DNA of 63,229 nucleotides, filler included, from Klebsormidium nitens (Eukaryota > Plantae > Klebsormidiophyceae): the NCBI GenBank assembly GCA_000708835.1. It is 5 parts of 5 records of this genome, joined end to end, with 100 filler letters (N's around TTAATTAATTAA, not from the genome) between each part and the next. Parts side by side here need not be neighbours in the genome. Positions count along the whole stretch, not along the records: positions 59,972 to 63,229 come from DF238590.1; 4 more parts are not named here. The stretch is one strand, 5' to 3'. The notes below the pieces were generated by a model. It was not told the DNA's origin. It ran no database searches and saw only the letters and a program-made list of their open reading frames with translations. Both the position numbers and the translations under genes were made by a program. Position 1 is the first letter of the stretch; each line of letters begins with the position of its first letter. Shown one piece after another: positions 28,001 to 63,229 of this stretch.

Positions 28001-28037
28001 GGTTAGGGGGCGGGTTGGGCGGTGGGTTAGTTCGGGG
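16029..28037 (-). CDS. Very large predicted surface/membrane protein: Pro-rich stalk, two cadherin-like beta-sandwich domains, about 7-8 Cys-containing Ig-like repeats, multi-pass TRP/polycystin-like TM region and long charged tail. Core resembles uncharacterised plant At3g48200-type proteins. 5' end lost in gap
   Basis: Exons 28037(open)-27201 (frameshift at G10 27431-27440), 26573-26389, 25918-24899, 24376-24183, 23779-23141, 22689-20930, 20354-20044, 19663-19512, 19128-18926, 18669-18569, 17900-16029; all GT-AG and phase-consistent. Repeats of type C..C.F.C.LD....CS...L..G.H.F.V.A.D..GN....Y.W.VD; cadherin-like LIPPFSPTTFNYT; motifs VRFGEPCLGGGGFTC, QGFALLRKLAV, LHFPRPEL, RFGILFEAF, KPYIS. 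The At3g48200 resemblance is recalled, not searched. Confidence 0.85.
27241..28037 (-). repeat. Extensin/pherophorin-like proline-rich low-complexity coding segment (SPPP/NPPP/PPPP)
   Basis: G-rich plus strand; minus translation PPPNPPPNSPPPESPTPDYPPPDCPPP... runs into the gap. Confidence 0.9.
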
Positions 28038-28137
28038 NNNNNNNNNNNNNNNNNNNNNNNNNNNNNNNNNNNNNNNNNNNNTTAATTAATTAANNNNNNN
28101 NNNNNNNNNNNNNNNNNNNNNNNNNNNNNNNNNNNNN
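28038..28137. other. Assembly gap (100 nt) with TTAATTAATTAA linker
   Basis: N run with central linker. Confidence 0.98.
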
Positions 28138-39269: not shown

Positions 39270-42200
39270 TCAAGGCACCCCCCATCTCGCAAACGAGGGG
39301 GGGCCGCTCGCCAGCTTGGTCCCTGCGGAAGTCTGCCCCCCCGGTGCGGGGAGGCGCAGCGCCCGGCATACGTCGTTGCACTTGTGCGAGTTGAAGAAGA
39401 GGCCGAAGCCCTGCTTCCCCAGGTTGGTCCGGCTGAACCGCAGGACGTCCGTACAGTGGATCGCCGGGTCGCTCAGCAAGAACACCGGCTGCCCGTCCGG
39501 GCCCGAAGTGCGGACGCCCTGAAAGGAAAGCACTAGGAGAGATTCATGAGGCGTCTCCTCGTGATATATCCGACCCGGGTGCTATTCAGAGTGCTTGGTT
39601 GGGATTTGCTCTTGTTCCAAAGGGATCGCCGACTTTCGACCGTTCGAGTGAGCGAGACACCTTCACCGCCCTGGGCAGAAGGGGCAAAGTGCGCATTTCC
39701 GGAGCGAACGGTGGTAGTCTTCGTCCACTGATGGAGCAACGGTTTTTGCACGCAAAGAGTGCATTTTTAGCGAATGTCCATGCCAACTCTGAAGGACTCG
39801 AAGTTGGACCAAGGACGGGCAGAGAGTCTGGCGAGAACCTTAATTTATCATAGGCTTTCTCGTATGTGAATCTGATCGTGAACACTGTATACGCAGAGGG
39901 TAGTATATGTCCGTAACGACCTTCGGCTGGAGACAAACTGGCTGGGAACTTTCGTGCAGGGCGCTGATCCTCAGCCCCTTCGCCTTCATCTTTCCAAAAT
40001 GTATAGAACTGAGAGCCAAGAACAAGTCCCAGAACACATGAAAGTCAAGAAAAATAATAGTAAGCCCAGATAATAGTAAGGTAACCGCACTGTGACGGGT
40101 AGGGTTAGTATAGTGGTCAGGGTGGGTACGGCTGCGGAGCGGGTATTTCATTTAAGGTTGGGATTTTTAGTGTTAGTCGAGGCTTACTATTATCTTGGCT
40201 TACTATTACCTTGGCTTACTATTATCTTTCTTGAGAGTTATCCAGAACACAGCAGTTGACAGGAAGCTCGAGGATGGGTCTTACCTGCAGGTCGGTGACC
40301 ATAAGCAGGCCCCGGGACACGTGGAAGGTCCAGTGGGAGAACGCGTGGAGCGTTGCCCGGTACTCGGGCGTGTTCACGTAGCCCGCGTTGCTGCTATACT
40401 TGATCCAAGCCCCGGTCAGCAGCGGCTCCTTGGTGTAGTACTTCTTGCTGCAATATAGTAGATACGAGGAGCGTCGTTTGGAGATTCAGCTGCCGGGGCC
40501 TCACAACGTGAGACGACGTGCCAGAAAATCAATCGGGCTAGCTGCTTCTAAAGAAAGAAGCTTCGTTACGTTCCAGACTGTTCTGGTCCAGGAGTCTATG
40601 TTGTGATGGAACAAACCTTTCTTGAAAAATGGTTGCCATCAAACAGATCGTGCGTCCGGGACATTCAGGGATTCTCACTGACTTTCTTCTTGCACATTGG
40701 CCTTGATTTGCTGACGTTTGAGCGCTGCAACACGACCGGCATCCCACGAATGCACAGCAATGATTGGAAAACGATTGGCGAAGATCAAATGGGAGCCCTG
40801 TCCTTCTTTTCTGGCTGGAAACTGGTCGCAATCTGTTTAGTGATTGGATACGCTTCTTCGAACCAACTGACCATTACTTCATCCTTGGCAGAATTTACTT
40901 TGAGGGCATCCTAAACGTCGCACGGGAGATTCTCCCCCGCCCTCACCTGCCGCCGTGTTCCACCTCGAGCATCGTCACCTCCGCAAAGGACACCTTCCGC
41001 GGAAAGCGGAGTTCCGCGATCCGCGCCGTGAATTCCGCCGCCAGCTGCGCCGACACCGTCTGTATCTCCATCTGCTGCAGATACCGCTCCCTGGAGTGAG
41101 TCCGTGCTGGGCTGTCGCCGGACGGCTGCTTGAACCGCTTGACCACGAAGACGTCATCGCCCACGTCAGCACGTGTCCTGCTGACGTCAGCGCTCACGGC
41201 GTAGTACGGCCAGCGCATGGCGCCGTCGTTCGAGAACGGGTTCGGGCCGAACTTGAGGGTCGCGGTTCGGACGGGCTCCGTCTCGAAGAGCTCGCGATCG
41301 ATGATTCGCTGAAAAGTCGCCTCCAGAGAGCTTTCTTGTCTGCAGAATGAAAGATACGGTCATGATTATCGGGGGACCGCTTGAAAAATCTGGGCAAAAC
41401 AGATCTTCGACGGTAAAATTTCTGGGCAAACCAGGTTGTCGATGATGAAAGGCAGGCATGATGCGGGGTGAGAAATCATTCATTGCGCTCCAGATTGCTT
41501 TCGAAAGCAATAACCAGAAAACTTTGCAACCGCGGAGTTTGGACCGAAGCGTTCCGACTTGCTTTTGTATACGGTAAAATCTGAGCCGAGAAACTCATTT
41601 GTGTGTCGAGGTGCAACCGGAGAATGCACTCCGAAATATCTCCCGGTCAATCTTCTCCCCCGGCCAGACCTCACTTGTACTTCAGCTCCCGCGCAGCGTA
41701 GCTCCGGTGCAAGAACCCCCAGTTGGGCACTCGGGAGACCACCACCTCCGGCACAAACTTTGGCGCCGGCCCGCCCCTCCCGACTGTCGATAGCGTCTTG
41801 CTGATCGTCTCCCGGGACAGAAGCACCACCTTATGGACTATGCTCTGCAGGTGTGAAAAAGTCTCGTCCTGGAGCCAGTCCTCCCCGGGGGATCCCCCCG
41901 GCCCGTCCGCCAGGCGCTTGAAAACGGCCACCATCTGCTGGGTCGTGTCGTTGAGGTGGCAGAAGAAGTAGGTGGACACGTGGCAGTCGGCGCGGAGGGT
42001 TTGCAGGAGCGCGGCCGCGCTCCGGCCGCGCGTGTCGCCGCCCGGGTAGTTGTCGGACAGTCCGGAGTGGAAGTCGGTGCCGTGGCAGGGGGCGTCCGCA
42101 ATGTGAACCAAAAGGCGGCCTGCAGGGAGAGAACAAAAGCATATATTTGTTCTATTTAAGTCGTTTTAAAGAGAAGAATGCAATCTACTTCGCACTCGGT

Positions 42201-43911
42201 GTTGAAAAACGGCGTCTAATGTAAAGATGAAGCTCGATGTCAAAGAAGTTTCATGGGCTCATCTTCCGAGCGCCGCTTTCTGAAGTCCACTCTCTCCTGC
42301 AAGCTTAAAACCAGGTAAGCGCCCTTCGCGTCGGACCAGACTCCGTGGTTAAGACGAACTTGACACGGCTTCTCTCAAAAGTACCTTGCAGTCAGTGCCG
42401 TGTTAGAATGCAGCCATGGAAGCATTTCCAACGCGACAAAAGGCTAATATCTGGACTAATCTGCTGAAACGAAGTGATATGTTTTCCGAGTAGGCAGGAG
42501 TAAGTTCAGAAGTAACTGCGCTTTTCCAAATCGAGCTCGACGCCACAGAAGCGTTCAAAACGCACTTTTGAGGATGCAAAACATTTCGATGTTGTAACAA
42601 GCGAGTCCATAAATTCACCTTGCGCGCGCCACCCCAGCGCGGCCGCTCTTTCCAGCCCCGTGAACACGTCCTCAGGCGCGTCGTCGCCCCCCATCGCGCG
42701 CACGCGCGCGAGCGCCGTGACGAAAGCGCTGCCGTCAGCCACGAAGTCCGGGGTGAAGTCGATGACGTCAGTCTCCTCGCCGTAGTCGCGGTAGCCGACG
42801 AACGCGACGCGCAGCACGGCCGCGGGGTACGCCTCCTGGATGCCGCGCACCAGCGTGCGCGCCTCGCGCTTTACCAGCTCAATGGACGCCTAAGGAAGAA
42901 GGTATTCGTCAGAAGCAGAGTTCGAGAGAGAATGGTCCGGGGTGCGCTTGGGAAAGATCGTAACATGTTGGGATTGGGGTCACAGCAGAAACGATTGCTG
43001 AACGTTTGCGAGGGCTCTCCAATCCTCCCACTTTTGCGAAAGGGTTGCAGACTTCCTTGAAGATTTTGTAAGAAGAAAACGAGAGAGAATTGAGGTGGCG
43101 ACTCAAAGTGCCAGGCACCTGAATAACGGAAAAAGACGTGACTTTACCATAGGCTTCAAGTCTCAGAATCGCTCTCTCTGCGGTGTCTGCTTGCGGTCGC
43201 AAAGGGGATAGTCTGCCGCATTCAAAGAGGCAGAGTACAGAGATCTCTACCGAATAGATTTCGTCGAACCTTTTTAGTCTTACCCCCATGCTTCCAGTGC
43301 AGTCGACCAGAAACGCGACGTCGAGCTCCTGTGCCTTGAGCACCAGCGTCTTGATTTCCACTTTCCGCTCGACCGATTCCGCCCGCCACTTCTCCTCGTA
43401 GAAGCCCAGCTTCCGCTCGCGTTCCGCCCCTGGAGATGGAGTCCCGCGCCATTTTCTCCTTCAACCGGTTTAGCTCCAACCGGGTCGCCGAAGACGTCAC
43501 AGGCGCCCGGTGATCGGAGCCCCGGGCGGTTCCGGGCGACCCCGAACCGCTCGCGCCGGCGCCCATGTCGCCCAGCTTCGCACGGAGGCGCTCCAGCTCC
43601 AGGCGCGTCGCCGAGGATGTGACGTCAGCGCGTCCGGGGAACTCCGGGGCGCTCGGCGAAAATTCACCGGGCGCGTCCTCCAGCTTCTTTTTCGGCCGGG
43701 CGGTCTCCTGGCGCCCGGTTGAAGCCGACTTGCGCCGCTCCATGTCCTCCACCAGGCGGGTGAAGTCCTGCCGGGACTTGGATGACGTCACGGGAGGAGT
43801 GCGCGCGTCAAAAATGGAGAGCGGCCGCGAGCTCTCCCGGGAGTCCTTCTCCCCGGTCGGGTCCTCCGGCACTGGGCCCAGCTTCCGGCCGCGGTGGTCG
43901 GGTGACGTCAT
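39270..43911 (-). CDS. VWA domain + alpha-kinase (eEF2K/MHCK-type; VwkA-like architecture), about 715 aa, one frameshift
   Basis: Exons 43911-43284 (one extra base near 43443-43455), 42889-42619, 42119-41675, 41339-40947, 40447-40285, 39518-39270. VWA: LDVAFLVDCTGSM, VAFVGYRDY, GGDDAPEDV, HIADAPCHG. Kinase: GAMR, VVKRF, KEPLL..WIKYSSNAG, AFSHWT, MVTDLQG, LSDPAIH, TNLG, HKCNDVC. Confidence 0.9.
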
Positions 43912-46235: not shown

Positions 46236-46335
46236 NNNNNNNNNNNNNNNNNNNNNNNNNNNNNNNNNNNNNNNNNNNNTTAATTAATTAANNNNNNNNN
46301 NNNNNNNNNNNNNNNNNNNNNNNNNNNNNNNNNNN
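46236..46335. other. Assembly gap (100 nt) with TTAATTAATTAA linker
   Basis: N run with central linker. Confidence 0.98.
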
Positions 46336-46491
46336 TCACAGATAGACAAGACCAGGTCGAGTCATCTGGATAGAACGCCGTACATCAACGGTCTCACAGC
46401 GCGCCGTTAAGACGTAACCGCTGTCGTTTCGCTAACAGGCAGCTAACGAAATCCTGACGAGAACGAGGTTAGGCTTAACCAGACGTAATCG

Positions 46492-46893
46492 TCACAGCAA
46501 CTGGCAGACTAACCCACCCTTCGGAACTGTCAGCACAACACGAAAATCCTTCAACAACGGCAAAGCAATAGGCATGCTATCACGTACCAACACACAAGCA
46601 GACGTCGAAGTAGGGCAATCAACAAACGCTGAGTACAAATGCCTAAAACGTTCAGTCACATCCTTAGACGTACTCGCGTTTATCCAAACATGCTTGCCTA
46701 CCATAGACGATGTCAGAAAAGCTGAAATAGGACACACATCTGTAGAGATGGACTCTTTTGAACGTTGAACTCCCATTCCAAATATACGACCAGTAACATT
46801 TGAAATGTTCAGGAAGTCCTGTTCTGTCAGATCCAATACAGAGTTTTCCTGACTTGACATCGGTCCTACGTTGGCTAGTCTTTCTGAAAACCC
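46492..46893 (-). pseudogene. N-terminal pol domain in the -1 frame from gag; resembles a degenerate Dam-type N6-adenine methyltransferase
   Basis: Open frame containing SAFLTSSMVGKHVWINAST...CPTSTSACVLVR...TVPKG. The pattern matches VWxNPPF / TSAxxLVP / PxG as I recall it, but the catalytic motif is altered. Confidence 0.45.
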
Positions 46894-48405
46894 TTCTCGG
46901 ACTTCGTGTTGCCCTTTTTCTGGCCTTGGCCTTTGCCTTTGTTCCCATTAAGAGGACCCTCCTCGCAGTCACGTGCAATATGGCATGGCTTGTGACAAAT
47001 ATGGTACAGGCGGTTCTCCATATCGTTGGCATACTGCTCATCGGTAAGAGCTGCCGACAACTTGGCTTTGGACGAACGTCCAGAACCACCTCCACCAGAT
47101 GACTTGCGCTTTCCAGCCAACAACTTGGCGGGCTGAGAAGACTTGCACTTAGCTAGTCGTGCCTCCACAGTAGGCCACATCAAAGTTGCGTAGTTCCCAA
47201 GCGCGTTGAGTGTAGCCCAACGTTCACCCGTAGGGGGCGTACGGCACATCTCCTTGATGTCAGGCCGAAGTCCAGCTCGACACCTCTCGATCTTGACAGC
47301 CTCGTCAGTACTCTCCTCACGAGGTTTTTTTTTTTTTTTTTTTTTTGACATAGCCTGGTTAAACTCGACGTTATACTCGTCCAAGCTCTTGGATCCCTGG
47401 GACAACTTGTTCCAGGTATTCCAATAAGACTAAATGGGGGTACGCAAACCATAGCCCCTGATCATAGTTTCACGGGAGAACTGACGAGCATTCCCAGCAA
47501 ACGGACCGTGAATAGCTGCATCCCCAGGATACGCTCCAGGGTTCGCTGCCTGCCATGCCTCCCACGTCGACATCGAGAAGGACCTCGGCTTACCATTAAG
47601 GTAGGAAGACGCAATACGCACATACTCTGCATTGGGGGTATTCACCAAATACTCCTCAATCATAGGCAACCACTGACGAATGTCAGGACCACTCGCCTTG
47701 TTCTCGAACTTCGAGGGAGCAGGGCCCTGGCTACTGCGTTAGCATTCGCAGCAGCGATCTGGTTCTGGGCCTGACCCAATGCGTTGTTCAGACGTGCAAA
47801 ACGATTAGCATTGCGCTCGTCACGATGAGTCAACACAACCATAGTCACTGAAGCATTGCCAGCCCCAACAGCTAGCGTCTCCGCTGCAATCCTCTCAGCC
47901 CTAGTGCCAAGAGCCTGCCAATACGCCTCAAACTGAGCACCCGTGCACGTCGCAAAGTTAGGCGCAGCAGGTGGTGCAGCAGCGGCAGCAGCCATCGTGA
48001 TGCATAACTCAACAGACTCAACAGATTGTGCTCTAACACTTCTCCTCACAAGAGTAACGTAAACCGACTGAGAGCTAGAACCAGCAACCTGACTGTAAGT
48101 AGGAGCAAGCTCAACACTCTCAGACGGCAAAACAGGAACACTTTCCCAATCCTCAGAAATAGCAGACTTGCTTTCCTGGTTCCCAAAAACCTGCTCCTTC
48201 CCCTTGCTTGCAGGAGTAAACGCAGGGGCCTCCGGGCTCAATGCACTGGTGGAAGGCTTCGCAACCTCCCTTTCAGAGCTCTTCTCCAACCTCAACTCCG
48301 AGATACTACAACACAGATCCGTAATTCTGTCGAGGTAAGACGAAAGGCGCTCGTCGTCCGACATGGACCCACTTCCAATTTCTGCAAAGAGACCAAAACT
48401 TTGCC

Positions 48406-48416
48406 CTCTGATACCA
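48406..48416 (-). promoter_or_regulatory. Primer-binding site complementary to tRNA-iMet
   Basis: Minus strand TGGTATCAGAG, one base after the LTR end ...CCGTCACA. Confidence 0.9.
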
Positions 48417-48417
48417 T

Positions 48418-48896
48418 TGTGACGGTTGGCCAGCTTAAGCGAAGCGCTGGCAGGATAACTAGACACACATACGGCAGCCATGTGCGGAAACCATGGTTGC
48501 AGGCATTCTCGGATGGAGGCGTTTGCTCCACTTTGTGTTCAGCCAAGTCTTGGATCGGGGAGAGGCTGCTTCGGGAAGTGCCCTCAAGCATCTCGCGTCC
48601 GGTCATGTCCAGGACAGCTTACTTACTGGGACTGTATACTACGACCACATCCATGGACCATGCCAAGCAATCCTGGACATGCCATAGTCTTGCAAGATCA
48701 TGCAGTCACGTCATTGACTCAGCATTCTAATCTTGCACTCTACGAACTATTCGCTGGCGTAATCAATCAAGCTTGCATTAACTACGTCACATCAATACTG
48801 TGCTCATACGCCTCAACCCGGCGTACGCGCGCACCCGAAGGTTAATTTACTGGTGACGATGTGCTGTTAGACTTTAACCATAGCCCATCCGTCACA
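48418..48896 (-). repeat. 5' LTR (about 479 bp) of the Gypsy element
   Basis: 8-bp terminal inverted repeat TGTGACGG (48418) / CCGTCACA (48889-48896), adjacent to the PBS. The second LTR is not seen; an alternative end is CGTCACA at 48791. Confidence 0.7.
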
Positions 48897-49214
48897 TTAA
48901 GATCTGTAAATTGCTAACATTCATTGTCTACAAGCGTTCTAACATTGGCAGCAATCTGCGCAAATTTTCATCAAGGGGTTCGCAATCGTCCTTGGGATTT
49001 TTTTTACTATGCGGCCTCCGTTATCTTGAATTTGCTTTAATAGGCTGCTCGAAAAAGTGGGTTGAGACATTGGAGGCTTTTTGCGCTCACGGTGTCAGTG
49101 GTCCGAAGCGAAAATTCGGCCGTCCGATCGCTCATCGGACGGTCCGATCGCAAATTCTCGATACCATCCAATTTACCAAGGACGGGTTGTAAACTCCCCC
49201 GGAGGGGAGGATAG

Positions 49215-50945
49215 TGTGACGATTCTTTGGTGATGAGGTTATGACCAGGTATGATTGTATTATGCATTATGGCAAAAGTGTTGTTATGATAAAGAAAGGG
49301 AAAATACATTTGACTGTTTGTAGTCCTGCTCTTTCTCGTTCACGTTTTGGCGATGATGAGAAGTCTAATACCGACGTGTTGTCTCATGCACAGTTAAAGC
49401 GGTTGGTGAAACGAGGCGCCTGCGTGTACTTGGCCTCTCTGAAGCCTATTGACCCAGACGCTGCCACGTGTTCTACCACTACTGTCGCTGGCTCTGAATT
49501 TTGGGGCAATCAAGATCATGCCACTACTCTGTCTGAGCCAACCGTCCAACCAGCCCAACCGAGCGACCCAGTCTCAAGTGAGAAGAAATGGGTTTCTACT
49601 TTGTTAAATGAGTTTTCTGACGTATTTCAGGATCCTCTTCCGGTTGGTCTGCCTTCTGAGCGTGCAGAAGGTCATAGTACTTCTACAGAGCCAGGGCATC
49701 CGCCTACGTTTCGGCAGATGTACCGTTTATCTCCGCTTGAATATCGTGAGTTGGAAAAGCAGGTCACCGCGTTCTTGAAGGCTAGAATTCTGGAAGTTTC
49801 TTAGTCTCCTTATGGTGCGCCTGTACGTGTTGTTTGTCGCTAAGCCTAACGGTCGTGATCTTCGTATGTGTGTTGATTATCGGGCATCTAAACTCGATAA
49901 CCATTAAAAATCGGTGTATAATTCCACGTATTGATGATCTGTTAGATGCTGTGAGTGGTTCGTTTTATTTTACCTCTTTGGAGATGTGACGTCTGGTTAT
50001 CATCAGATCATAATTTTTGAGGCAGATCGTCCGAAGACAACTTTCCGTACGCCTTCTGGACACTTTCAGTTTAAGGTGTTGATTGAACGCTGATGAATGC
50101 TCCGGCGACGTTTTAGACCGTAATGAACTCAATCTTCGCGCCAAAGAAATTTGTCGTTGTGTATTTGGACGACATTATGATCTTTTCAAAATCTGACGCA
50201 GAACATCAAGCGCATGTGCGGCTTGTTTTGGATGTTTTGCGTCGCGAGCAGTTATACGTGACAAAAGCAAAATCCAAGTTTGCTCAGAATAAGATTCAGT
50301 ATCTGGGGCATATCGTAAATGCACAGGGCATTCGTCCTGATCCCAAGAAAGCAGTGCTGTCCAGTCTTGGCCTGTGCCCAAGAACGTCCACGACGTGCAG
50401 TCGTTTCTAGGACTCTGTAATTATTTTCGCAAGTTCATAGATCACTACTCGTCGATAGCAGTGCCTCTGACGAACTTAACGAAAAAGTTTGTTGGCTGGA
50501 ATTGGACTGGGCGGTGTCAAGATGCTTTTGAGAAGCTTAAACGTAGTCTGATTGCAGCTCCGTTGCTTATGGCTCCTGATGAAAAGAAGCCCTATGAAGT
50601 TGCTACGGATGCTTCTGACTATGGCCTTGGTGATGTTCTGTTGCAAGAAGGTCATCCTATTAATTGCATTTGAGTCTCGTAAGTTGAACTCGGCAGAGCT
50701 TATAATTACACAGTTACAGAGAAGAGATGCTGGCTATTGTTCATGCTTTGCGAGTGTGGCGGTGCTAGCTGGAAGGAGCTCAGTTTTCTGTGTTCACAGA
50801 CCACGTGTCGAACACTTTCTTCCAAACGCAACCCAGTTTGTCACGTTGACAAGCACGTTGGTCAGAATTCATTCATCACTTTGGGATATTTAAGTGGGAA
50901 TACCTTAAAGGCGAACGTAATGTAGCTGATGCGTTAAGCAAGGGG
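49215..50945 (+). mobile_element. Decayed Ty3/Gypsy pol fragment (end of protease, RT, RNase H)
   Basis: EFSDVFQDPLP, YRLSPLEYRELEKQV, VVYLDDIMIFSK, QSFLGLCNYFRKFI, EVATDASDYGLG..LLQEG, AFESRKLN, ADALSR; many stops and frameshifts. Confidence 0.9.
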
Positions 50946-51284
50946 GATGTGACTGCTAGTCAGCTACAAAGCGTTGACTCTGATAAGGCTCAGCCTTCTG
51001 GTGCAGTATTTGCTGCTGCTGGCCGGTGTAGCGACACCAAACCGAGGAATGTTCCAGAACAGAAGTATGTCCGGCCAGACTGTTTCTGTTCGTGGTGGCC
51101 AAAGTGTTTCTAGTCCGACTTTTGACTCGAGTCCTTCCTTGCTCAAGCCCCTTATTGCATTCCAAAAGCATGAGGCCCATATTTCTGCTGGATGATGCAG
51201 GAATTAGAGGCTTTGAAAGCTATGTGCGCGCTTCTTCCGATGGTGACCGATTCGTGTTGCATATTTGATCATTCGCGCGGCTAG

Positions 51285-51790
51285 CGGCATCACAGTCGCC
51301 GGCACGGCACTAGCCGGCATACACGGCACTTGCCGGCGTACACGCGGCCGCCTCTGGCTTACACGCGGCCCCATCCGGCGTACAGCCGGCAAACCCCGGC
51401 ACCGCATAGTACCGGTAGTAACTCGCCGACCAAGCCGGCCGGCAGCAACTGCCCATATGCTCAGGCGGTCTGCGAGACCGGCCGCGGCACCTGCAATACC
51501 GCCCGGCAGTGTGGCGGCACAACCCCCGGTTTGTCCTGCCGGCACCAAGCTTTTCTGACTATTCAGACTGAAAGCCGCCCGACTCCAGGTCCCGCCGGAC
51601 CGGCGATAGCTGTCGCCGGCGCCCTGCCGCGTGATGAGCGTCGGCAGTCGGCTTGCCCGTACCGGCAGCAGCCTTGGTACACGCGGCAGCCGCGGGGTAC
51701 ACGCGGCAAAGAGCCGGCACACAGCCGGCGTGAGCGGTCTTGGCTCGGCACACTTCCGGCATACATCCGGCGAAGTCCCTAATTTCCGAT
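51285..51790. repeat. CGGC/GCCGGC-rich degenerate repeat between two convergent pol fragments
   Basis: Recurrent GCCGGC, GTACACGCGGC and CACAGCCGGC motifs. Confidence 0.55.
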
Positions 51791-52267
51791 GTATCCTAGG
51801 TCGGGTACGGCGGCGCGCATCTTCTTAGGATGGCATTTGACTGCTTTATCTCTGAGTCGCTAAAACAGTTGTTTCAAGTGGTTGAGGTGTTCTTTGAAAG
51901 TTCTGCTAAACACAATCAAGTCATCAATGTAGCAGCGGCAGAAAGCCCTTTCGGCGCGGAGGGTTTGGTCCAGAACCTTCTGAAAGTATGCTGGTGCATT
52001 TTTCAACCCAAACGGCATAACCAACCATTCGTATCACCCATCTGCTCCCCAGAATGCGGTCTTGCAGCGCGATCTCTTTCTGCAATCCGGATCTGATAGT
52101 AACCTTGCCAGAGATCTGAAGTAGTAAACACCTTAGCATCGCCTATGATGAAACGTTCTTACTCCTGGTGACCATGGGAGAGGCGCGAAGGCGCCTGGTG
52201 ATAAACCTCTCGGAGAGAAGGTGGTGTAAAGGTTACACCTCTGGTGGAATCCAGAGACTACATGTCT
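51780..52267 (-). mobile_element. Decayed Ty3/Gypsy reverse transcriptase fragment
   Basis: Minus strand IGDAKVFTTSDLWQGYYQIRI, YEWLVMPFGLKNAPAYFQ, CYIDDLIVFS, KCHPKK, with stops and a frameshift. Confidence 0.85.
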
Positions 52268-53027
52268 NNNNNNNNNNNNNNNNNNNNNNNNNNNNNNNNN
52301 NNNNNNNNNNNNNNNNNNNNNNNNNNNNNNNNNNNNNNNNNNNNNNNNNNNNNNNNNNNNNNNNNNNNNNNNNNNNNNNNNNNNNNNNNNNNNNNNNNNN
52401 NNNNNNNNNNNNNNNNNNNNNNNNNNNNNNNNNNNNNNNNNNNNNNNNNNNNNNNNNNNNNNNNNNNNNNNNNNNNNNNNNNNNNNNNNNNNNNNNNNNN
52501 NNNNNNNNNNNNNNNNNNNNNNNNNNNNNNNNNNNNNNNNNNNNNNNNNNNNNNNNNNNNNNNNNNNNNNNNNNNNNNNNNNNNNNNNNNNNNNNNNNNN
52601 NNNNNNNNNNNNNNNNNNNNNNNNNNNNNNNNNNNNNNNNNNNNNNNNNNNNNNNNNNNNNNNNNNNNNNNNNNNNNNNNNNNNNNNNNNNNNNNNNNNN
52701 NNNNNNNNNNNNNNNNNNNNNNNNNNNNNNNNNNNNNNNNNNNNNNNNNNNNNNNNNNNNNNNNNNNNNNNNNNNNNNNNNNNNNNNNNNNNNNNNNNNN
52801 NNNNNNNNNNNNNNNNNNNNNNNNNNNNNNNNNNNNNNNNNNNNNNNNNNNNNNNNNNNNNNNNNNNNNNNNNNNNNNNNNNNNNNNNNNNNNNNNNNNN
52901 NNNNNNNNNNNNNNNNNNNNNNNNNNNNNNNNNNNNNNNNNNNNNNNNNNNNNNNNNNNNNNNNNNNNNNNNNNNNNNNNNNNNNNNNNNNNNNNNNNNN
53001 NNNNNNNNNNNNNNNNNNNNNNNNNNG
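52268..53027. other. Assembly gap (760 N)
   Basis: N run. Confidence 0.98.
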
Positions 53028-54101
53028 AGGCGGGGCCCGTCGTTGAGTGAGGGCTGTAGCAGTCTGCCTAGCCCATCACTCAGCACCGGGCTTGCTTCCG
53101 GTCACCCGGTACCATGAAACAAGTCGGTAAACACTAGAACCAGTTGATATAATATTTGTGGGCCCGATCGTACGGTGGACAGTGACCGCCGGTCTGATTC
53201 CGGTTCCGTGCGACGCATCATGCGACGTAAATTTCACCGCAGAACTTTGAAAGATCATCGACGGCAAAAAGTCATCCTCGCGAGGTTTGAACTCTGCCGC
53301 ATTGGTATTCAGTGAACTCACGCTGCGTTCAGCAAACTTTTGCAACGTCAGCAAAAGGCTAAACCCAATGTGCAATTCAGTGTCTAGCTCAGGCTTGCGT
53401 TGCATATTGACTTCAGTGGTTATAGCCTAATGTATAGGAAAACATATTTCACGTTAGCAAAAAGGGCCAGCGAACGCTTTTGCCTGGGGTGAGTATGCTG
53501 CTCACCCAGCTCGTTCGGTGGATAATTGGCCCTTGGATGAATTAGCCAAACAAACTTATGATGTCTGCAAAAGGAAGGGTCGATGACGCGAGCGTGATGA
53601 GCAGACCGCTCATCCACTTCGTCACGGGTAAAGCCTTCCTTGCAGATCTCTCGTTAGAATAAACTTATAAACTAACGTCAGCTCTCACTCGACAAAAGAG
53701 CTGAGCATCGGCGATATGAGGTAGTATACCACTACATCCTCGATGCCCTAGCTCTGCCCTGGAAGTTCCAAATTAAACCTTTATTGAAAACTTCCTGACA
53801 ACGTCAGTAAAAAGGCGTTACGGAGAGTATGCTACCCAGCTTGCCTTGCGTAAACCCGTTTCAGCAATGTTTCCTTTGAAATAAACTTATATTTCATGAT
53901 CTGTGAACACCAGCAAAAGCGTAGGACGGAGTTCAAAAAAGACGTGGCCTTTGAGCCACACTCCCAGGAAACTTAGTCCTACGTTGAGGCTAATCAAGTT
54001 TAAACTCATAACTTGGAATCAACGTTGCTCAGCTGATCATGGCAGACTTTGTTACAACAGCCATGCACTTCTTGACGAACGCACATGCGCAAGGAGCAAA
54101 A

Positions 54102-54143
54102 TGGATGCTCCAGGGTTCGAACCCGGTAACCTGGGCATGGCTG
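54102..54143 (-). other. tRNA 3'-half-like fragment with intact T arm / B box
   Basis: Minus strand CCGGG-TTCGAAC-CCTGG-AGCATCC-A fits tRNA positions 49-73. No complementary 5' acceptor strand was found, so it is not a complete tRNA. Confidence 0.45.
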
Positions 54144-54834
54144 TTTGCGGCGTTGCCGGAAATCCGTTACGGGATAGCGACGCAATGTCTACTGAGTGAG
54201 CGCTCTGCGGTTGCGAAGGGGGTTACCCAACGCGGGTCAGTCTCTCGAAGGACTTTACCCCCGACTTACGAACTGATCAGTTCCCTGGAAGTCCGGAAGC
54301 TCGTCCTACTGAGCCTGATAACCCGCTAGGTTGATAACCCGCCAGGTCACCGATACTGACCAACATCCTAGTTGATCCTCAAACCCCTTGATTTCTTGTA
54401 TTTAAAGACGGGCAACTTCATCGAAAAGTCTTGTGGGTCCACTTGGATTTCGACCGTCGTTAAATTGTTCCGTCTCGGTTCCGTCTGGGTTCCGTCTGGG
54501 TTCCGTTTACGTTTCATTCCAAAAAGGAATTGGGCTCAGATCGTCCCGCTTGAGAGTGCGAGTGGTGGCTAGCAACGTCAAGCTGCCATTGCCAATTATC
54601 TTCTTTGCCCGTGCTGACTACGAAGCACCAGTGCAAATATATAAAGATAGCTTTCTGACTTCTGTGACACTGTGGGTCTGAAAAACACAGCAGAGAAGCC
54701 CACCTGATCATGACACGTGGCAGATCAACGGTGGTAGGCAGCTCGTAGAAGGTCGGCGGAACGGCTGACGCGGCCGCGCGAACTTCGTAGTCACAGATTC
54801 TGCAAAACTTTGAACAATAATTCTGTCAAAAAAA

Positions 54835-55508
54835 NNNNNNNNNNNNNNNNNNNNNNNNNNNNNNNNNNNNNNNNNNNNNNNNNNNNNNNNNNNNNNNNNN
54901 NNNNNNNNNNNNNNNNNNNNNNNNNNNNNNNNNNNNNNNNNNNNNNNNNNNNNNNNNNNNNNNNNNNNNNNNNNNNNNNNNNNNNNNNNNNNNNNNNNNN
55001 NNNNNNNNNNNNNNNNNNNNNNNNNNNNNNNNNNNNNNNNNNNNNNNNNNNNNNNNNNNNNNNNNNNNNNNNNNNNNNNNNNNNNNNNNNNNNNNNNNNN
55101 NNNNNNNNNNNNNNNNNNNNNNNNNNNNNNNNNNNNNNNNNNNNNNNNNNNNNNNNNNNNNNNNNNNNNNNNNNNNNNNNNNNNNNNNNNNNNNNNNNNN
55201 NNNNNNNNNNNNNNNNNNNNNNNNNNNNNNNNNNNNNNNNNNNNNNNNNNNNNNNNNNNNNNNNNNNNNNNNNNNNNNNNNNNNNNNNNNNNNNNNNNNN
55301 NNNNNNNNNNNNNNNNNNNNNNNNNNNNNNNNNNNNNNNNNNNNNNNNNNNNNNNNNNNNNNNNNNNNNNNNNNNNNNNNNNNNNNNNNNNNNNNNNNNN
55401 NNNNNNNNNNNNNNNNNNNNNNNNNNNNNNNNNNNNNNNNNNNNNNNNNNNNNNNNNNNNNNNNNNNNNNNNNNNNNNNNNNNNNNNNNNNNNNNNNNNN
55501 NNNNNNNN
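54835..55508. other. Assembly gap (674 N)
   Basis: N run. Confidence 0.98.
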
Positions 55509-56617
55509 CCTTACAAACTGACCTGGTGACAACCTTCTGCTTCGGCTTCTTAGCCTCAAGAGGCTTCGCCTGAGCTTGGGCGGGCTCGGGTACACCTTTC
55601 CGAAACTTACCCACATAAACCCAATACTCTTCGAGAATATCCTTACAGTTAGTAAGGTTCTTCTCTGGTTCCCAGGTATTGTGCTCGGGCCCATACCCTA
55701 ACCATTTGACCAGGAACTCTGTCTTGGTGCCTTTTCCGCGTTTACCTGTGGGGTTATCGAGTGTTCTTTCGACCTCATACTCTAATGAGTCATCGATTTC
55801 GATGGGTGGTGGAGGCGGCTGCACTCTGCCATTATTTCTGTAGGGCTTCACAAGATCAACGTGAAACACGTTATGCATCTTGAGATTTGGTGGAAGCTTC
55901 AACTTATACGCGACCTTGCCCACCGGTTCGATCACTTCGAACGGTCCTACCCACTTGGGCAGAAGCTTGCGAGTCCCTGGATTTGCGAGCTTAAAATTTT
56001 GCGTTGAGAGGAGAACCTTCTTCCCCTTCGCGAAAGAGACGTCTCGTCTCTTCTGATCAGCAAAAGACTTCATACGCGACTTGTGCTGCCAAGATACTTT
56101 GTTTTGCTCGCGCGATACTCATATCCATCTGACGCAAAAAGTCAATGGGGGACCCGAGTTTCCCTGCCCCCATCAAGAGGTGTACGTGGGTGCTGACCAG
56201 TATTTAACATAAACGGGGTTTCTTTAACCGATTCTTGCCAAGCATTGTTCACACTGAACTCTGCAAGATACAGCCACTCATCCCAATCGTCCTGCTGAGG
56301 ACTGGTGTAGTGACGCATGAAATCCTCTAGGATACGGTTAGCCCGCTCAGTTTGTCCATCAGTCTGAGGGTGGAACGGTGTGCTCATCTTTAACTGCGTT
56401 CCTAGCAGCCGCGCTAGCTCAACCCAGAACTTGCTTGTAAACCTCGGATCTCTATCCGAAACAAATTCTGCAGGAAGTCCGTGAAGTCTAAACACGTTAT
56501 GCGCGAACAGCTTCGCAACATCCGAGTCCTCAGCGGAGCATTTTGTGTGCGTGGGAGCAAAATGAACCATCTTGGTTAACCTGTCAACGAAAACCACAAT
56601 TGCATCATGACCACTCC
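55509..56617 (-). mobile_element. Chromovirus-type Ty3/Gypsy integrase with GPY/F region and C-terminal chromodomain, disrupted near 56140
   Basis: VFVDRLTKMVHF, FVSDRDPRFTSKFW, HPQTDGQTERANRILE; LLPKWVGPFEV, HNVFHV; EYEVERTLD..FLVKWLGYGPEHNTWEPEKNL. Confidence 0.92.
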
Positions 56618-57277: not shown

Positions 57278-58855
57278 ATGAGCGCTGACTCGTCATCCAT
57301 CTGCCTTGAATTGCAGATCATGGAACTTGAGCTCTGGAAGAGAGACGGCGGCCGCTTCGTTTGCCTCGAACAGCATGCGAGCGAGGCAAGAAGCTGCGGC
57401 AAGCCTTTCGTGTCAAAGCAAGCTTTGGAAGGCCACCGGAAGCGGACGGGGTGTGAACCCTGGAAACTCCCAAGCAACCGCGCGCCCTCCAAGTATCACG
57501 GCCTGGGGCCAGAAGCTGCGAGTCGCCAGCTGAAGCGCCAAAGCAACAGGGCAGCCGTGTCCAAATACAGAACGACGCTCGACGGGGAGCGGGCCGTCCA
57601 TCGCGCGCGGCACATAGCCAACTACCGCCTAATGGCGCGTGATGCCGTGCCCGCTCCCCGGATGCCCAAAGCACCGGCTTACGTGCGGCCGCCTATCTCA
57701 TAGCTGATTGCCGATGCTGAGATTTATGTGCAGGATCTGAAGGAGAAATTCGATCTGGGAGAGATCGTGCTGAACCACGCGACGTGGTCCCTGCGATTCC
57801 ACCCAGATAAGGTTGAGGTGAGTCAACCCGTTTGCTACAGCTTCGACTTGGTTTTCGGGGTCACTCATGGCCGGCCTGCAAAACGTGTACATTCTTGTTG
57901 AATCAAGGTACATTGCCTGAAATTTTGGTCGATTGGTCAAAAATTCGTGTACATGCACCTTATCGGCCGCAGGACCTTTTGCAAGCAGAGGCAAATTTGA
58001 AAGCAACTGGTAGATTAATGTGAGGTTCCAATCTTGCTCCAAGTTGTGCTTGTCGGCATCGTTAAGGCAGGCCGTCTATCTGCACTTGTTAATTGAAGGT
58101 TGTCGATGTATAGGGTGCATGTGCAAATTGTCAGATCCAGGCTTCAAGCTCCAAGCGGTGCGCTTCGTGTTGAATTTGACCAAAGGTCAGGCCGAGTTTG
58201 GCAGTTAGAGTACATTTCTATCAATCAGCGTATAAAACTCATTACTGTAGCTGATCAGTTTACATTACTTTGTAACAAGAGAACATCACTCGATAATCTA
58301 ACTAGATTGGACAAAGAATCGTGTACATCATTCCTTAATGACTGCTGCATCATTTTGATTAAGGGAGGACTTGGGAACATCTTTGGCAATACGCGTACAT
58401 TTCCTCTCAATCGGAGTACATCATTCATCAATAGGTGTACATCATCACTTATTGACTGCGGCATCATTGTCAAGCAGGGGAGGAGTGGGGAGCACCTGCG
58501 GCAATTCATTGAGCACTTCACGGGCTCTCCAGATGGTCTGGAACAAGAGCAAGCAAAGAAGTGCTACGCTACGGAACTGTTTGCCCCACTCAACGAGGAG
58601 CGTTTCAAGCCCGGTCAAAGCGCTCAGAAAGCTGGTGGCATGTTGTGGAGAGCGTGGTTGTCGGTCGAATGTGCACTCATTGACGACTATGCAGAATATC
58701 TGGTCGAGTTTGAGGAATATATAGCAAAGGTGAAGCAAGCAAGCCGAGAGCTAGAACGGGCATGTGAGAGATGGATTCTTGAGAAGCTCGAGCAAAAGTT
58801 CGAGAAGTCAAAGGCATATAAGAGATACATATTGCACAATCAAACTACCGAGTAG
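57278..58855 (+). pseudogene. Spliced gene for a C2HC/C2H2-like zinc finger + HPD-motif (auxilin-type J-domain-like) protein, with a premature TAG
   Basis: ATG 57278; C-x10-C-x3-F-x5-L-x2-H-x5-C; in-frame TAG 57701-57703; the same frame continues to SLRFHPDKVE|GTGAGT (57817); phase-0 acceptor at 58477 then GRSGE..KKCYATELFAPLNE..; stop at 58855. Confidence 0.55.
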
Positions 58856-58875
58856 AAGCACTTCAACGGCTAGTA

Positions 58876-59833
58876 TGTGCAATGGTATACTGTGATTCTT
58901 TTGTGCACCGTATTGAACGATTCGAATGGATGCAATACTTGGTTTCCGCCCCCAATTGCGCTTACTGTAGCAGCCATCGAGATGGACAAAGCTGTGCTTA
59001 AAAGTGCTCGATCAAAAGTGCTCGATTAACGATTTTGAGATGCGGCTACCATGCATTTGGATCAGTGCCTTGAGACTATCTTGGATGTTGTAGCTTTGGG
59101 TGTATTCGAAACTTGCCGCCCCCCTTCGATGAAGTCAGCAGCCATTCCCCGCACTTTCACATATGATCGATGGCGCGAAGGTGTCCAAGTGTCCGACGTT
59201 TTGATGAGCGTTTTTGAGTCGACCCCCTTGGATGACGTCAGCAGCCATTCTCTGCACTCTCGCTTGTAATAGATGGCGCAAACGTGTCCGAGTGTCCGAG
59301 TTTTCAATGAATGTTTTCACGTCGACCGCTCTGATGACGTCAGCAAAACTCCCACCAACCATTCACTATGATTGTCGGCGCAAAGGTGATCGAGTGTCCC
59401 ACTTTTTAACACACCTTCTGTATATCCTTTCAGAATGTACGTCCTAGACTCAGCCTAGGACATACAGATTCTGATCGAAGATTATTGGTGGGGATGGCTG
59501 CTGACGTCATCAGAGGGGCCGCTCTCAAAAAGTACGTGAAAAACACGGACGCTGAGACAACTTTGCGCCAATGATTACAGATAATCGGTGGTATTGGTCG
59601 GTACATGCACATGATATCCGGCCATTCTATTCATTATTCAATCGGATAATTTGGTGGAATGACTGTTGACGTCATCAAGCTCATCAAGCACTTAGCGGCC
59701 GGCTGTGTGCAATGATATCTTGTGATTCTTTTGTGCGCCGTATTCAACGATTTGAATGGATGCAATTTTAGGCTTTCGTCCTCCGACTACGTTTGCAATC
59801 GAGCAGATGGACCGAGCGGTTCTTCAAAGTGCT
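58876..59833. repeat. Composite repeat: about 130-bp direct repeats flanking an imperfect palindrome built from about 103-bp TGACGTCA-containing units
   Basis: Direct repeats 58876-59008 and 59706-59833; forward units at 59128, 59231, 59333; inverted units near 59491-59600 and 59657-59679; central hairpin GTCCTAG-N7-CTAGGAC at 59441-59461. Confidence 0.75.
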
Positions 59834-59871: not shown

Positions 59872-59971
59872 NNNNNNNNNNNNNNNNNNNNNNNNNNNNN
59901 NNNNNNNNNNNNNNNTTAATTAATTAANNNNNNNNNNNNNNNNNNNNNNNNNNNNNNNNNNNNNNNNNNNN
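59872..59971. other. Assembly gap (100 nt) with TTAATTAATTAA linker
   Basis: N run with central linker. Confidence 0.98.
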
Positions 59972-60014: not shown

Positions 60015-62824
60015 ATGTCTTCAACAGGCATGGGAGTGGCCAGCGTCCATGAGACTAAGGCCCTAGGACCTAGGAGCATCAGAGCCGAGATCATGCGCCT
60101 TCACAATGTAGGCATGTATGCAATTCCAGTGAAACTGGTTTGGGACCCGAAAAAGGGTAAGAAGGATCCAAAATTTCCCCATACTTGGCGTCAGATGATC
60201 GATCCAAAGTCGTGGAGAGAATCAATAGAAACAGCTCTCTTGCAACGGCCCGATGCCAACGGGCTTGCGATCTTGACCGGTACGAGTGGACTATTTGCAA
60301 TCGATGTTGACAATGATTCTAACAATCCCAAGAAGCTTCCCGGAACTGAACTCTGGAATCGCTTGATCGATGCTCACGGCGAACCGAAGACCCTGAAGGC
60401 CCGCACTGCTTCAGGAGGGTTTCACTACGTATTCAAGGCTTGCAGCCCTGAATTATTCTCTCGGAAGAACTTCTCAACCGTGAAGGTTGGCAAAGACATC
60501 TGGGGGATAGATGGCCGATCCCTTGGTGGATGTATATTTGCAGAGCCAACAACCTACGTAAAAGAAGGGCAGGTTGTGGCCTACGAGTGGTTGAACGGTC
60601 CTCCAAGCTATGATGCATGCAAGGAGGTGCCAGGATGGCTCGCGAAGGTGGTTCAGAATCACGCTGGTGACGCCATGTCAGCCGAGAATCCAATGAACGA
60701 TACCAAGCTTTCCATGATATGCGCTCAAAGTGACGATTCAAGTACGATACCCAACAGCGAGGCCCGAAGTTCACGTGGGGAGTCAACTTTCGACGGATTG
60801 TCGAGTGACAAATCACTGCTGTTGGCCGAGTTGTCTAAGCTATTGAAGGAGAAAGCAAACGATACGACCAGCACGTATGCCAACTCGTTGCCCCATGGCT
60901 TATACGGCACTTACTATTGCTATCGAACTAGAGGCCCTCGCAAGTGCTACCTGGGGCACCAGCACAACGGAAGCAACAACTTTAATCTTTTAAAACGGGA
61001 ACGCAACGTGTGGTACCGTTGTCACGGCCAAGAGTGCTCTCACAAGCCTCCAAAGAAACAAGGTGAGCTGAAACTCAAAGCTGCTTTGCAAGATGCCTCG
61101 ACATTCCCTGTCAATCATCACGACGATATGCGTGTCATTACACAATTTACGCGCGGGACCCAGGAAGTACAAGAGTTGCTTCTTCGCATTGTTGTCGAGC
61201 ATGCAGCACCCCAAGCTTACGCCAATCTGGGCCGGCTTTTTGCATACATCTACATGATTGAAGGACGTCTTCTTGCAACGCGCAACAACGCCGAGAAGAA
61301 TAAGGATATCTACTTCTATGTATGGAACGGCTCCTCTTGGACGCCAGACTCGTCCAACCTGGTTGCCAGCGTGTTTACCTCACAGATGGGTTGCCTTTTG
61401 GCATGGTATGAGGTGCAACGAGACAGTTGCTTGGCAAACCTACGAGCAAAGCACCCTCATCTGGAAGGGATTTCGACCGAGGGGGAAGGTGCACGAAAAA
61501 GTCTTCTAAAGAGAGCAGACTGGCTAAGTTGGCCGAGCAATCGTGCCTAGAGGAACGAGATCGGAAGATGCCAAGCTTTGGAAGGATCAACGTGCAGGAC
61601 ATTGGAGATGTGCGGAAATGCTTGCACTCGGCTGTAACCGAGTTGTATGTTGACAACCTCATGGATCTATTCGATCAGGAGAATCACGTCGCAAACGCAC
61701 CAAATGGATTGATCGACCTTCAAACGGGTGATCTCTCAACTCATCACCCTCAAGATCTCTGCAACAACAGCACAACTCTGTACGTGAAGGGCGCATCCAA
61801 AAGCGCAACGGCACGGTTCCGGACCTTTCTGATGGACGTCCTTCCATCCGAAGCCATCGGCTGGATGCAGATGTTTCTGGGATATTGCCTCACCGGAGAG
61901 ACGAGTGAGGAGCTCTTCGTGATCATGAACGGGGAAGGGGCAAACGGTAAAAGCGTATTGAAACAGGCATTGCGCAAGGCGTTTGGAAACTATAGTGCGG
62001 TTGGAAACAAGGCTATTTTCATCAAGCCTTCCTTTAGGGCCGACGCGTCTGCAGCTTCATCGCACTTGATTTACATCAAGTCCTCTCGTTTTGTGATAGG
62101 TGACGAAAGTGAGAAAGACAACCATCTCAACGACTCGTTCATAAAAGAGGCGAGCGGAGGCGGGGGAATCAACGCACGAGAGCTGTTTTGCAGGACGCAA
62201 GAGTATGTCCCGCGGTTCAAGCTGTGCTTGTTAACCAACTTCAGGCCCCGTTTTCCCTCTGACGATGTCGCCTTGATCCGCAGGATCGTGCTGATCATGT
62301 TCAACTATATTTTTAAGGCTCCGGACGAGTTTGACGCTAGCAACAAATACCACAAGCCCATTGACTTGACTCTAAAGCCTTATTTCGAATCAGAGGAAGG
62401 AGCTGCCGATGTCCTGGACTTTTGCGTCGAAGGGGCGACGATGTATTACGCAAAGAAGAGAGAGTCGCCAACCTCAAAGGTACTCTCTCCCATTCCAGAG
62501 GCCTTTAGCGCTGCTGCTCGTGAATATGCAGAGGAGAATGACAAGTTGCAGATGTTTATTGATGAGTCGTGTATCACAGGCGTTTCATTTGCTGTCACAA
62601 AGGCCGACTTTGTCGAGCACTTCACGGCATTTTTATACGCCGGTGGGTACGACACGAGCTTGGCTGGCGACGGTCTGGGAAGGGCGATGGCCATTAAGGG
62701 CTTTTCCAAAACACCTCTGGATGGAAAGAAGAACAAGATGATCAAGATGCTCAATGGGAATGGGAGAAAGGGGGGATTCTTTGGTCTCCGTTTGAAGACG
62801 GAGGAGGAGATGCAGAAGGAGTAG
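60015..62824 (+). CDS. Intronless primase-helicase: bifunctional Prim-Pol (AEP) domain, UL52/PrimPol-like CHCC zinc finger, D5_N, SF3 helicase, C-terminal winged-helix-like region; about 936 aa if the single frameshift near 61500 is corrected
   Basis: GLAILTGTSGLFAIDVD, ARTASGGFHYVF, GIDGRSLGGCIFAEPT; KCYLGHQHNGSNNF..VWYRCHGQEC; FYVWNGSSW, NAPNGLIDLQTG; Walker A GEGANGKS, Walker B FVIGDE, motif C LCLLTN. Overlapping ORFs 60015-61550 and 61427-62824. Confidence 0.9.
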
Positions 62825-62847
62825 GCAACGGCTGGGAGATAGAGGGC

Positions 62848-63206
62848 GTGATACTTTTGATACCCAAATATGGACGTTTCAAAAATCGAGTATCAACGAC
62901 CAAAAGATGCTTCATTTAAACTTTTGAGGTGGCTTATGCGGCATGAAAGTCGAGGAGTCTCTTTGGAAAGGAGCAAAACGCAGAGAAACGGGGGGTCGTC
63001 TTCGACATGTTGCCTAGTTGTGAACAATAAAGTTTGATACTATTGATACTTGATACTCTGTAAGGTACTACATACATTTTTAAAAAAAAGGGTGTTGATA
63101 CACACGTATATATATATAGGTGTGCCTTCAAAAACAGTATCAATAGTATCAATCGTATCCGCCCAAATTGCTATCATATCGAACATGCATGTAAATCTTC
63201 TGATAC
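62848..63206. promoter_or_regulatory. Candidate replication origin: GATAC iteron clusters in opposed orientation around an AT-rich core
   Basis: 11 GATAC/GTATC copies in about 360 bp; perfect 17-bp inverted repeat 63034-63050 / 63136-63152; T5A8 and (TA)n core. The function is inferred. Confidence 0.55.
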
Positions 63207-63229
63207 GATGCAACTCCATTTGCAATAGA

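Follow-up and report, generated by a model that had tools for sequence, protein, structure and literature searches.

Does an intronless primase–helicase gene in the nuclear genome of an alga belong to its host, or to an element that copies itself? The gene in question lies at positions 60,015–62,824 of a 63,229-nt stretch of Klebsormidium nitens DNA (assembly GCA_000708835.1), here called the window. A preliminary description took it for a single intact 2.8-kb gene, set among intron-rich host genes, that encodes the replicase of a self-replicating DNA element. What stands of that proposal is the element, to which a multi-copy family, a recombinase encoded beside two paralogues and an origin-like array all point; what does not stand is the intactness of this copy. 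It is highly probable that the locus represents a mobile self-replicating module and not a host gene. As to its source, we see a slightly better than even chance that it is the frameshifted replicase–origin end module of an element that integrates by a recombinase, most likely a Polinton-like virus (PLV).

The replicase interval contains no single intact 2.8-kb open reading frame (ORF) and consists of two overlapping ORFs in different frames, which end 405 bp before the window does:

60,015–61,550, plus strand: ORF-a, 511 amino acids (aa), with a Prim-Pol domain (aa ~20–220), a disordered linker, a C-H-C-C finger domain (aa ~265–355) and the start of D5_N.
61,427–62,824, plus strand: ORF-b, 465 aa, with the remainder of D5_N, a superfamily 3 (SF3) ATPase (Walker A and B, motif C) and a winged-helix-like C-terminal domain.
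~61,490–61,510, plus strand: the frame change that splits the replicase, seen by homologue alignment and present in runs X1 and X3 (Logan contigs).

Alignments with intact homologues run along ORF-a until about 61,484–61,490 and resume in ORF-b at about 61,500, and close homologues read continuously through the site. The same sequence, without an indel, is present in Logan contigs of run X1 (piece 60,921–63,229) and run X3 (piece 61,099–63,075), which counts against an assembly slip; the two runs represent one sample, possibly the window's own source, and not a second strain. No slippery heptamer of the form XXXYYYZ lies in frame at the frame change. Because homologues read through, the contigs carry no indel and there is no such heptamer, the copy in the window is most likely a dead pseudogene. 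The proposed absence of introns is borne out, as the homologue alignment is continuous on either side of the break and introns are unnecessary to explain it.

Both enzymatic halves are readily recognized, in agreement with the Prim-Pol and P4-alpha/D5-type helicase domains first assigned to the gene. In Pfam, ORF-a matches PF09250 at aa 36–208 (E = 1.5e-16) and ORF-b matches D5_N (E = 5.9e-8); ORF-b also matches P4/D5-type primase–helicase PHROGs at E ~1e-48. The Prim-Pol motifs DxD (IDVD, aa 96), GGFHY (134) and DGR (166) are present, as are the SF3 Walker A (GEGANGKS), Walker B (VIGDES) and motif C (LLTNF). PF09250, D5_N and the SF3 motifs together make this a primase/polymerase–SF3 helicase fusion, broken in the window copy; the catalytic motifs are thus all in place, as originally described, although the gene that carries them is frameshifted. 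Modelled with AlphaFold2 from 30 sequences (predicted local distance difference test (pLDDT) score 80), ORF-a resembles pRN1 ORF904 (Z 13.1, root mean square deviation (rmsd) 4.1, 182 residues aligned; Foldseek E 1e-6) and NrS-1 (Z 7.8; Foldseek E 8e-5). With its DxD, H and D catalytic residues and this fold, the PF09250 domain belongs to the Prim-Pol family of pRN1 ORF904.

The finger had been likened to that of UL52 and human PrimPol. Its four ligands are conserved among 39 sequences picked by the motif (C311 in 39/39, H317 in 38/39, C336 in 39/39 and C341 in 38/39), and a finger profile matches 53 of 276 collected proteins. We presume it to be PrimPol/UL52-like from a ligand spacing close to that of human PrimPol. 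The conserved C-H-C-C finger is confirmed; UL52 homology of the PF03121 type was undetected in Pfam, which gave 0 families for the finger at E ≤ 10, and the structural match of the ORF-a model to UL52 of herpes simplex virus 1 was weak (Z 5.4, rmsd 14.1). One member of the family, P0112, joins the same Prim-Pol domain and finger to another helicase half (DUF5906, no D5_N), a sequence arrangement that suggests helicase swapping. At the other end of the replicase, the last 95 aa of ORF-b (encoded at 62,537–62,821) have no direct Pfam match and resemble PF03288-bearing tails (family profile: P0066, E 6e-16, and L046, 1e-9, as single-target E-values; hhalign probability 22%). In the Rep proteins of Staphylococcus aureus pathogenicity islands (SaPIs), a PF03288-type tail domain binds iterons (PMC9371898, available, like the other papers cited here, as partial text).

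Iteron-like repeats lie directly downstream of the gene:

62,849–63,206, unstranded: origin-like array of hexamers TGATAC/GTATCA at 62,849, 62,858, 62,890, 63,035, 63,044, 63,051, 63,096, 63,137, 63,146 and 63,201.
63,035–63,151, unstranded: array core, three TGATAC against two GTATCA, mostly with a 9-bp period.

The array begins 25 bp past the replicase stop and places 10 hexamers in 405 bp. Between the opposed hexamers of the core lie ~80 bp at 69% A+T, with T5A8 and a CACAC-(TA)6-GTGTG hairpin. Dinucleotide shuffles never reached ten copies of any hexamer (0/1000; maximum 7), and the full opposed pattern occurs at this site only and in 0 of 100 shuffles. In a SaPI origin, rep is followed directly by 6–12 pentamer or hexamer iterons that face one another over an AT-rich core (PMC9371898), and the arms contain single inverted iterons (bioRxiv 10.64898/2026.10.17.759575). 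The array has this SaPI/P4-type layout, with opposed iterons around an AT-rich core directly downstream of rep and single inverted hexamers at 62,890 and 63,201. On this analysis it is likely to be the replication origin of the replicase element; the alternative is that it consists of transposase-type subterminal repeats.

As an outside test, we searched sequence collections for nothing but the DNA pattern (two hexamers at a 9-bp spacing, an AT core and an inverted pair). IMG/VR yielded 14 loci in 8 distinct contexts; with one ORF from each context sent to Pfam, a primase or helicase ORF lay within ~400 bp or contained the motif in 6/8 contexts (9/14 loci), and at locus L003 the gap to the gene was the same 25 bp. 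In GTDB, an ORF of a primase or helicase family lay within 600 bp at 14 of 31 loci (41 of 46 candidate ORFs scanned, three of them from controls; three loci lacked an ORF of 200 aa, and L045, with DUF3987, and L050 were uncounted). The motif was mostly downstream of the primase or helicase gene. Such genes take up very little of a prokaryotic genome. The replicases linked to the pattern in phages, bacteria and archaea are diverse, comprising Prim-Pol, Toprim-VapE, MCM plus primase (L026), NrS-1-like (L031) and DnaB-like (L052) types. By eye, the phage contig of L003 (L003:15191-15898) carries a type IV pilin-like gene adjoining a terminase.

The replicase belongs to a multi-copy family, contrary to what a single-copy host gene would show. 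Among the best 100 matches of a helicase search, the top nine have 55–74% identity and the other 91 at most 32%; the nine comprise five named K. nitens proteins and four from Logan or JGI, and four more K. nitens proteins appeared among 20 further matches that we looked up. The nine named K. nitens paralogues lie on scaffolds of 9–171 kb. Uninterrupted relatives of 800–990 aa keep all motifs. Conserved blocks are absent from several K. nitens gene models, which suggests from sequence that many family copies are damaged. Contig depth in X1, which is not a measure of copy number, was 32–35 on the replicase and 22–25 on exact-match upstream pieces, with no very high depth. In a helicase tree of 137 sequences (FastTree, midpoint root, no named reference sequences of PLVs or of nucleocytoplasmic large DNA viruses (NCLDVs); P0108 left out as a near-duplicate of P0250, helicase pieces below 280 aa dropped), the window copy nests with P0002, KFL_001520110 and KFL_008160020 (support 0.98), and the enclosing clade of 24 tips (0.92) contains 15 of 17 finger-bearing helicases. 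GTDB genomes contained no relative of the family, and the best phage matches have ~30% identity. The literature that we searched describes neither this replicase family nor an iteron origin in a PLV, and the lineage, with a finger in place of PriCT, is apparently new. Maps in Dataset S1 of PMC10120064 (BANV01 loci, given as pictures that are not readable as text) may already show a Pri-Hel gene beside K. nitens capsids.

Two of the nine named paralogue models also carry a putative recombinase directly upstream of the replicase. These models, KFL_003670050 and KFL_001520110, start with an additional stretch from another family, one of 19 proteins, whose profile matches them at E 4e-146 (P0009, aa 1–289) and E 2e-38 (P0003, aa 7–210). 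The longest contigs of P0270 (recombinase) and P0007 (replicase) both measure 12,284, likely one and the same contig. The family keeps R-K-HxxR-H-Y, which we take to be the tyrosine-recombinase motif; from that motif we also assume an OLV11-type enzyme. The N-domain of a structural model is closest to XerA (Z 8.7, rmsd 3.0, 87 aligned), Ndc10 (8.5) and Brujita integrase (8.3), and the six best structural matches are all N-domains of the tyrosine-recombinase fold.

These features fit a PLV end module. K. nitens has seven capsid loci of the PgVV group of PLVs (PMC10120064 Table S5), and PLVs with both a primase–SF3 helicase and a tyrosine recombinase have been described as Guillardia theta elements and as cryptophyte and entomopoxvirus-associated PLVs (PMC4642659, PMC12220804, PMC11296320, bioRxiv 10.64898/2026.06.19.733378). 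For these two reasons we favour a PLV origin over a new class without capsid. As in those PLVs, the Klebsormidium elements are integrated and multi-copy in an alga, a fusion of archaeo-eukaryotic primase (AEP)/PrimPol and SF3 helicase replaces pPolB, and in two paralogue models a putative recombinase adjoins the replicase; the PLV terminal repeat, too, has been proposed as an origin. Unlike in PLVs, the Klebsormidium primase is of the pRN1 type (PF09250), a C-H-C-C finger occupies the usual place of PriCT, the candidate for the origin is an array of iterons (a word that occurs 0 times in the available text of PMC11296320), and linkage to capsid genes is a presumption. The end-module order proposed for PLVs is inverted repeat/origin, primase–helicase, recombinase (PMC11296320). 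That order would put the rest of the element upstream, where there is neither recombinase nor capsid, so that the window copy would be truncated or rearranged. Between 44,000 and 63,229 we found no pair of long terminal inverted repeats besides the gap linkers, the right flank falling outside the window.

In intact members, we infer, the replicase would assemble into a hexamer that binds the opposed TGATAC repeats through its C-terminal winged-helix domains. Binding would melt the AT-rich core, onto which the protein would load itself, and the SF3 motor would then unwind the DNA. Priming and extension would both fall to the Prim-Pol domain, with help from the finger and no need of a second polymerase, as with SaPI PriRep, pRN1 ORF904 and NrS-1. 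Integration, and excision as a circle, would be the work of the tyrosine recombinase that sister copies encode immediately upstream. A close parallel in mode of action is SaPI PriRep5/Rep1, in which a primase is fused to an SF3 helicase that ends in a winged-helix tail; there, too, short opposed iterons flank an AT-rich core just past the gene, and the arms contain single inverted iterons (PMC9371898; bioRxiv 10.64898/2026.10.17.759575). SaPIs differ in being bacterial phage satellites; the Klebsormidium family resides in a eukaryotic nuclear genome, has another primase domain and hexamer and has no known phage helper. With an algal genome as its home and no GTDB relative, it does not qualify as a SaPI or other phage-inducible chromosomal island, which is defined by a bacterial host and a phage helper. 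The archaeal plasmid protein pRN1 ORF904 and the phage NrS-1 polymerase share the fusion of a Prim-Pol fold to an SF3 helicase, whereas the finger domain did not align to either. Cryptons integrate by a tyrosine recombinase and have no replicase, and Polintons (Mavericks) synthesize themselves with pPolB and integrate by an rve integrase; the Klebsormidium element would share its integration with the former and self-synthesis with the latter. It is no Polinton, having a Prim-Pol/SF3 replicase, and the rve domain nearby sits in a Gypsy remnant.

Several observations weigh against a PLV end module. In the window we found no capsid or packaging ATPase (no capsid profile was run), and a recombinase profile run on 1,617 six-frame segments of it gave nothing below E 0.84. 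The recombinase is directly upstream of the replicase in only two of nine named paralogue models, an adjacency taken from fused gene models and not from DNA. Its family has no Pfam match, confidence in its structural model is low (pLDDT 56), with the catalytic half left unaligned, and Foldseek ranked Cre first at a non-significant E of 0.57. By pentamer count, the tile with the array is only fifth of 296 in the window, four tiles scoring higher. Seventeen of the 31 GTDB pattern matches had no primase or helicase gene, and the counts come without a background rate; a scrambled hexamer gave five loci, two of which adjoin helicases, which indicates that geometry carries the signal and not the hexamer sequence. 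JGI metagenome contigs contained no relative of replicase or recombinase.

Among the points in favour, the window copy is likely silenced by methylation, judging from retained cytosines in run X5, whose changes are almost only C>T and G>A, as expected of a bisulfite library: in one contig, cytosines are kept at 6/6 CHG, 9/11 CG and 9/18 CHH sites, the X5 contigs having been chosen at an identity of at least 85%, which favours unconverted ones, without a host control. In K. nitens, silent elements and regions are marked by methylation at CHG/CHH sites (PMC5890265, PMC12344493).

A capsid-less element of streptophyte algae is possible, though we hold it to be doubtful. It would be a self-synthesizing tyrosine-recombinase transposon or a satellite-like replicon, leaving the genome as a circle, replicating by means of its Prim-Pol/helicase and inserting again, as a eukaryotic counterpart of SaPI/P4-type islands. 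In its favour, five protein-pattern scans of 2.9 million IMG/VR contigs returned no relative of replicase or recombinase other than two distant phage loci (L001–L002), a further point against a PLV, although these scans used few short patterns and would miss distant relatives. None of the five ORFs scanned at 57–63 kb matched a capsid family, but the window stops 405 bp past the gene, at 63,229, and the flanks of the paralogues are unread. The SaPI-like layout of the array, the recombinase upstream in two paralogues and the ESM Atlas neighbours, which are phage-type Prim-Pol/D5 clusters, agree with a capsid-less replicon. Against it stand the seven PLV capsid loci of the host, a number near the replicase count, and the pairing of primase–helicase with recombinase, which is the usual one in PLVs.

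That the locus is endogenous giant-virus debris, an accessory Prim-Pol/D5 gene and local origin brought in by Nucleocytoviricota insertions and later scattered, is unlikely. The best BFVD matches are giant-virus proteins, from Homavirus (E 1.7e-17) and Bodo saltans virus (E 1.2e-16), which also tells against a PLV; Prim-Pol–D5 fusions occur in both viruses, among the accessory helicases of Klosneuvirinae. C962R of African swine fever virus (ASFV) is the sole PDB sequence match of the helicase half (E 1.7e-9) and the only hit of a PDB profile search with the N-terminal half (E 0.03), and several NCLDV inserts are reported in K. flaccidum/nitens (PMC5294986, PMC12344493). The D5_N–SF3 helicase is indeed shared with NCLDV D5 and C962R, but identity is 13–23% in structural alignments, the primase is PF09250 and not the AEP of C962R/D5, and no NCLDV gene or context was seen upstream of the locus within the window. 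One of five NCLDV marker columns, read as D5 from the column order, is blank for K. flaccidum (PMC5294986), and the adjacent recombinase and compact origin suit a small element better.

A functional split is very improbable. Programmed −1 frameshifting or splicing could in principle yield a short Prim-Pol–finger protein beside the full replicase, or ORF-a could have been domesticated as a repair primase–polymerase; both halves keep their catalytic motifs with no further stop, and formally the two frames could be joined by any of 28 GT..AG pairs. Yet there is no canonical slippery heptamer, close homologues are continuous at the site, every bridging splice deletes sequence that aligns in homologues, a neighbouring gene also has a premature stop, and the locus shows signs of heavy methylation. 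Least probable of all is that the contig is a contaminant from a bacterium or phage, or that the break is an error of assembly: the 3.26-kb contig is connected to the remainder only via an N gap that no contig among those listed was seen to span, but nine diverged paralogues lie on K. nitens scaffolds of up to 171 kb, GTDB genomes hold no relative, the best phage matches reach only ~30%, non-CG cytosines are kept in the bisulfite-like run, and X1 and X3 have no indel at the break.

The setting differs from that first described. The intron-rich host genes end near 44 kb, and the replicase stands on a 3.26-kb contig, between a gap at 59,872–59,971 and the window end, within a repeat island whose other features include:

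59,117–59,781, unstranded: high-copy ~103-bp repeats containing a TGACGTCA palindrome, three in direct and two in inverted orientation, which may or may not belong to the element.
57,302–58,855, plus strand: a multi-copy spliced gene with a C2H2-like finger, an HPDK J-domain-like motif and a helical tail, which may or may not belong to the element.

The ~103-bp repeats have up to 19 paralogous contigs in X1, and a 96-bp direct repeat occurs at 58,856 and 59,686. The spliced gene, whose homologue is KFL_008050050, has a premature stop near 57,701 and 4–10 paralogous contigs per site in X1/X3; its DnaJ lead reached only 0.87, and a different repeat family may carry it as cargo. From 46,300 to 56,600 lie degraded remnants of Ty3/Gypsy chromoviruses, with a gag-like zinc knuckle at ~46.9–47.4 kb, reverse transcriptase and RNase H at ~50.1–50.7 kb and rve/SH3/chromo domains on the minus strand at 55.5–56.6 kb. 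The window had been said to lack an integrase; it does contain this rve domain, which belongs to the Gypsy remnant. By eye, two minus-strand host genes stand out further upstream: an intron-rich gene at 39,500–43,900 with segments like von Willebrand factor A and alpha-kinase, and a large proline-rich gene at 20,000–28,100 with repeated immunoglobulin-like modules resembling bacterial adhesins.

How replication starts in PLVs and other elements that lack pPolB is open, the origin having only been guessed at terminal repeats (PMC11296320, in its available part). A concrete candidate origin, with hexamer, spacing and AT core, beside a self-sufficient replicase makes initiation testable in vitro, and the opposed-hexamer pattern (loci L003–L052) is usable as a general origin finder. 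Klebsormidium is, moreover, closely related to land plants, and the replicase lineage that it carries is apparently undescribed. If the element proved to be capsid-less, it would add a class of eukaryotic self-synthesizing elements or transposons and would be the first SaPI-type replicon in a eukaryote.

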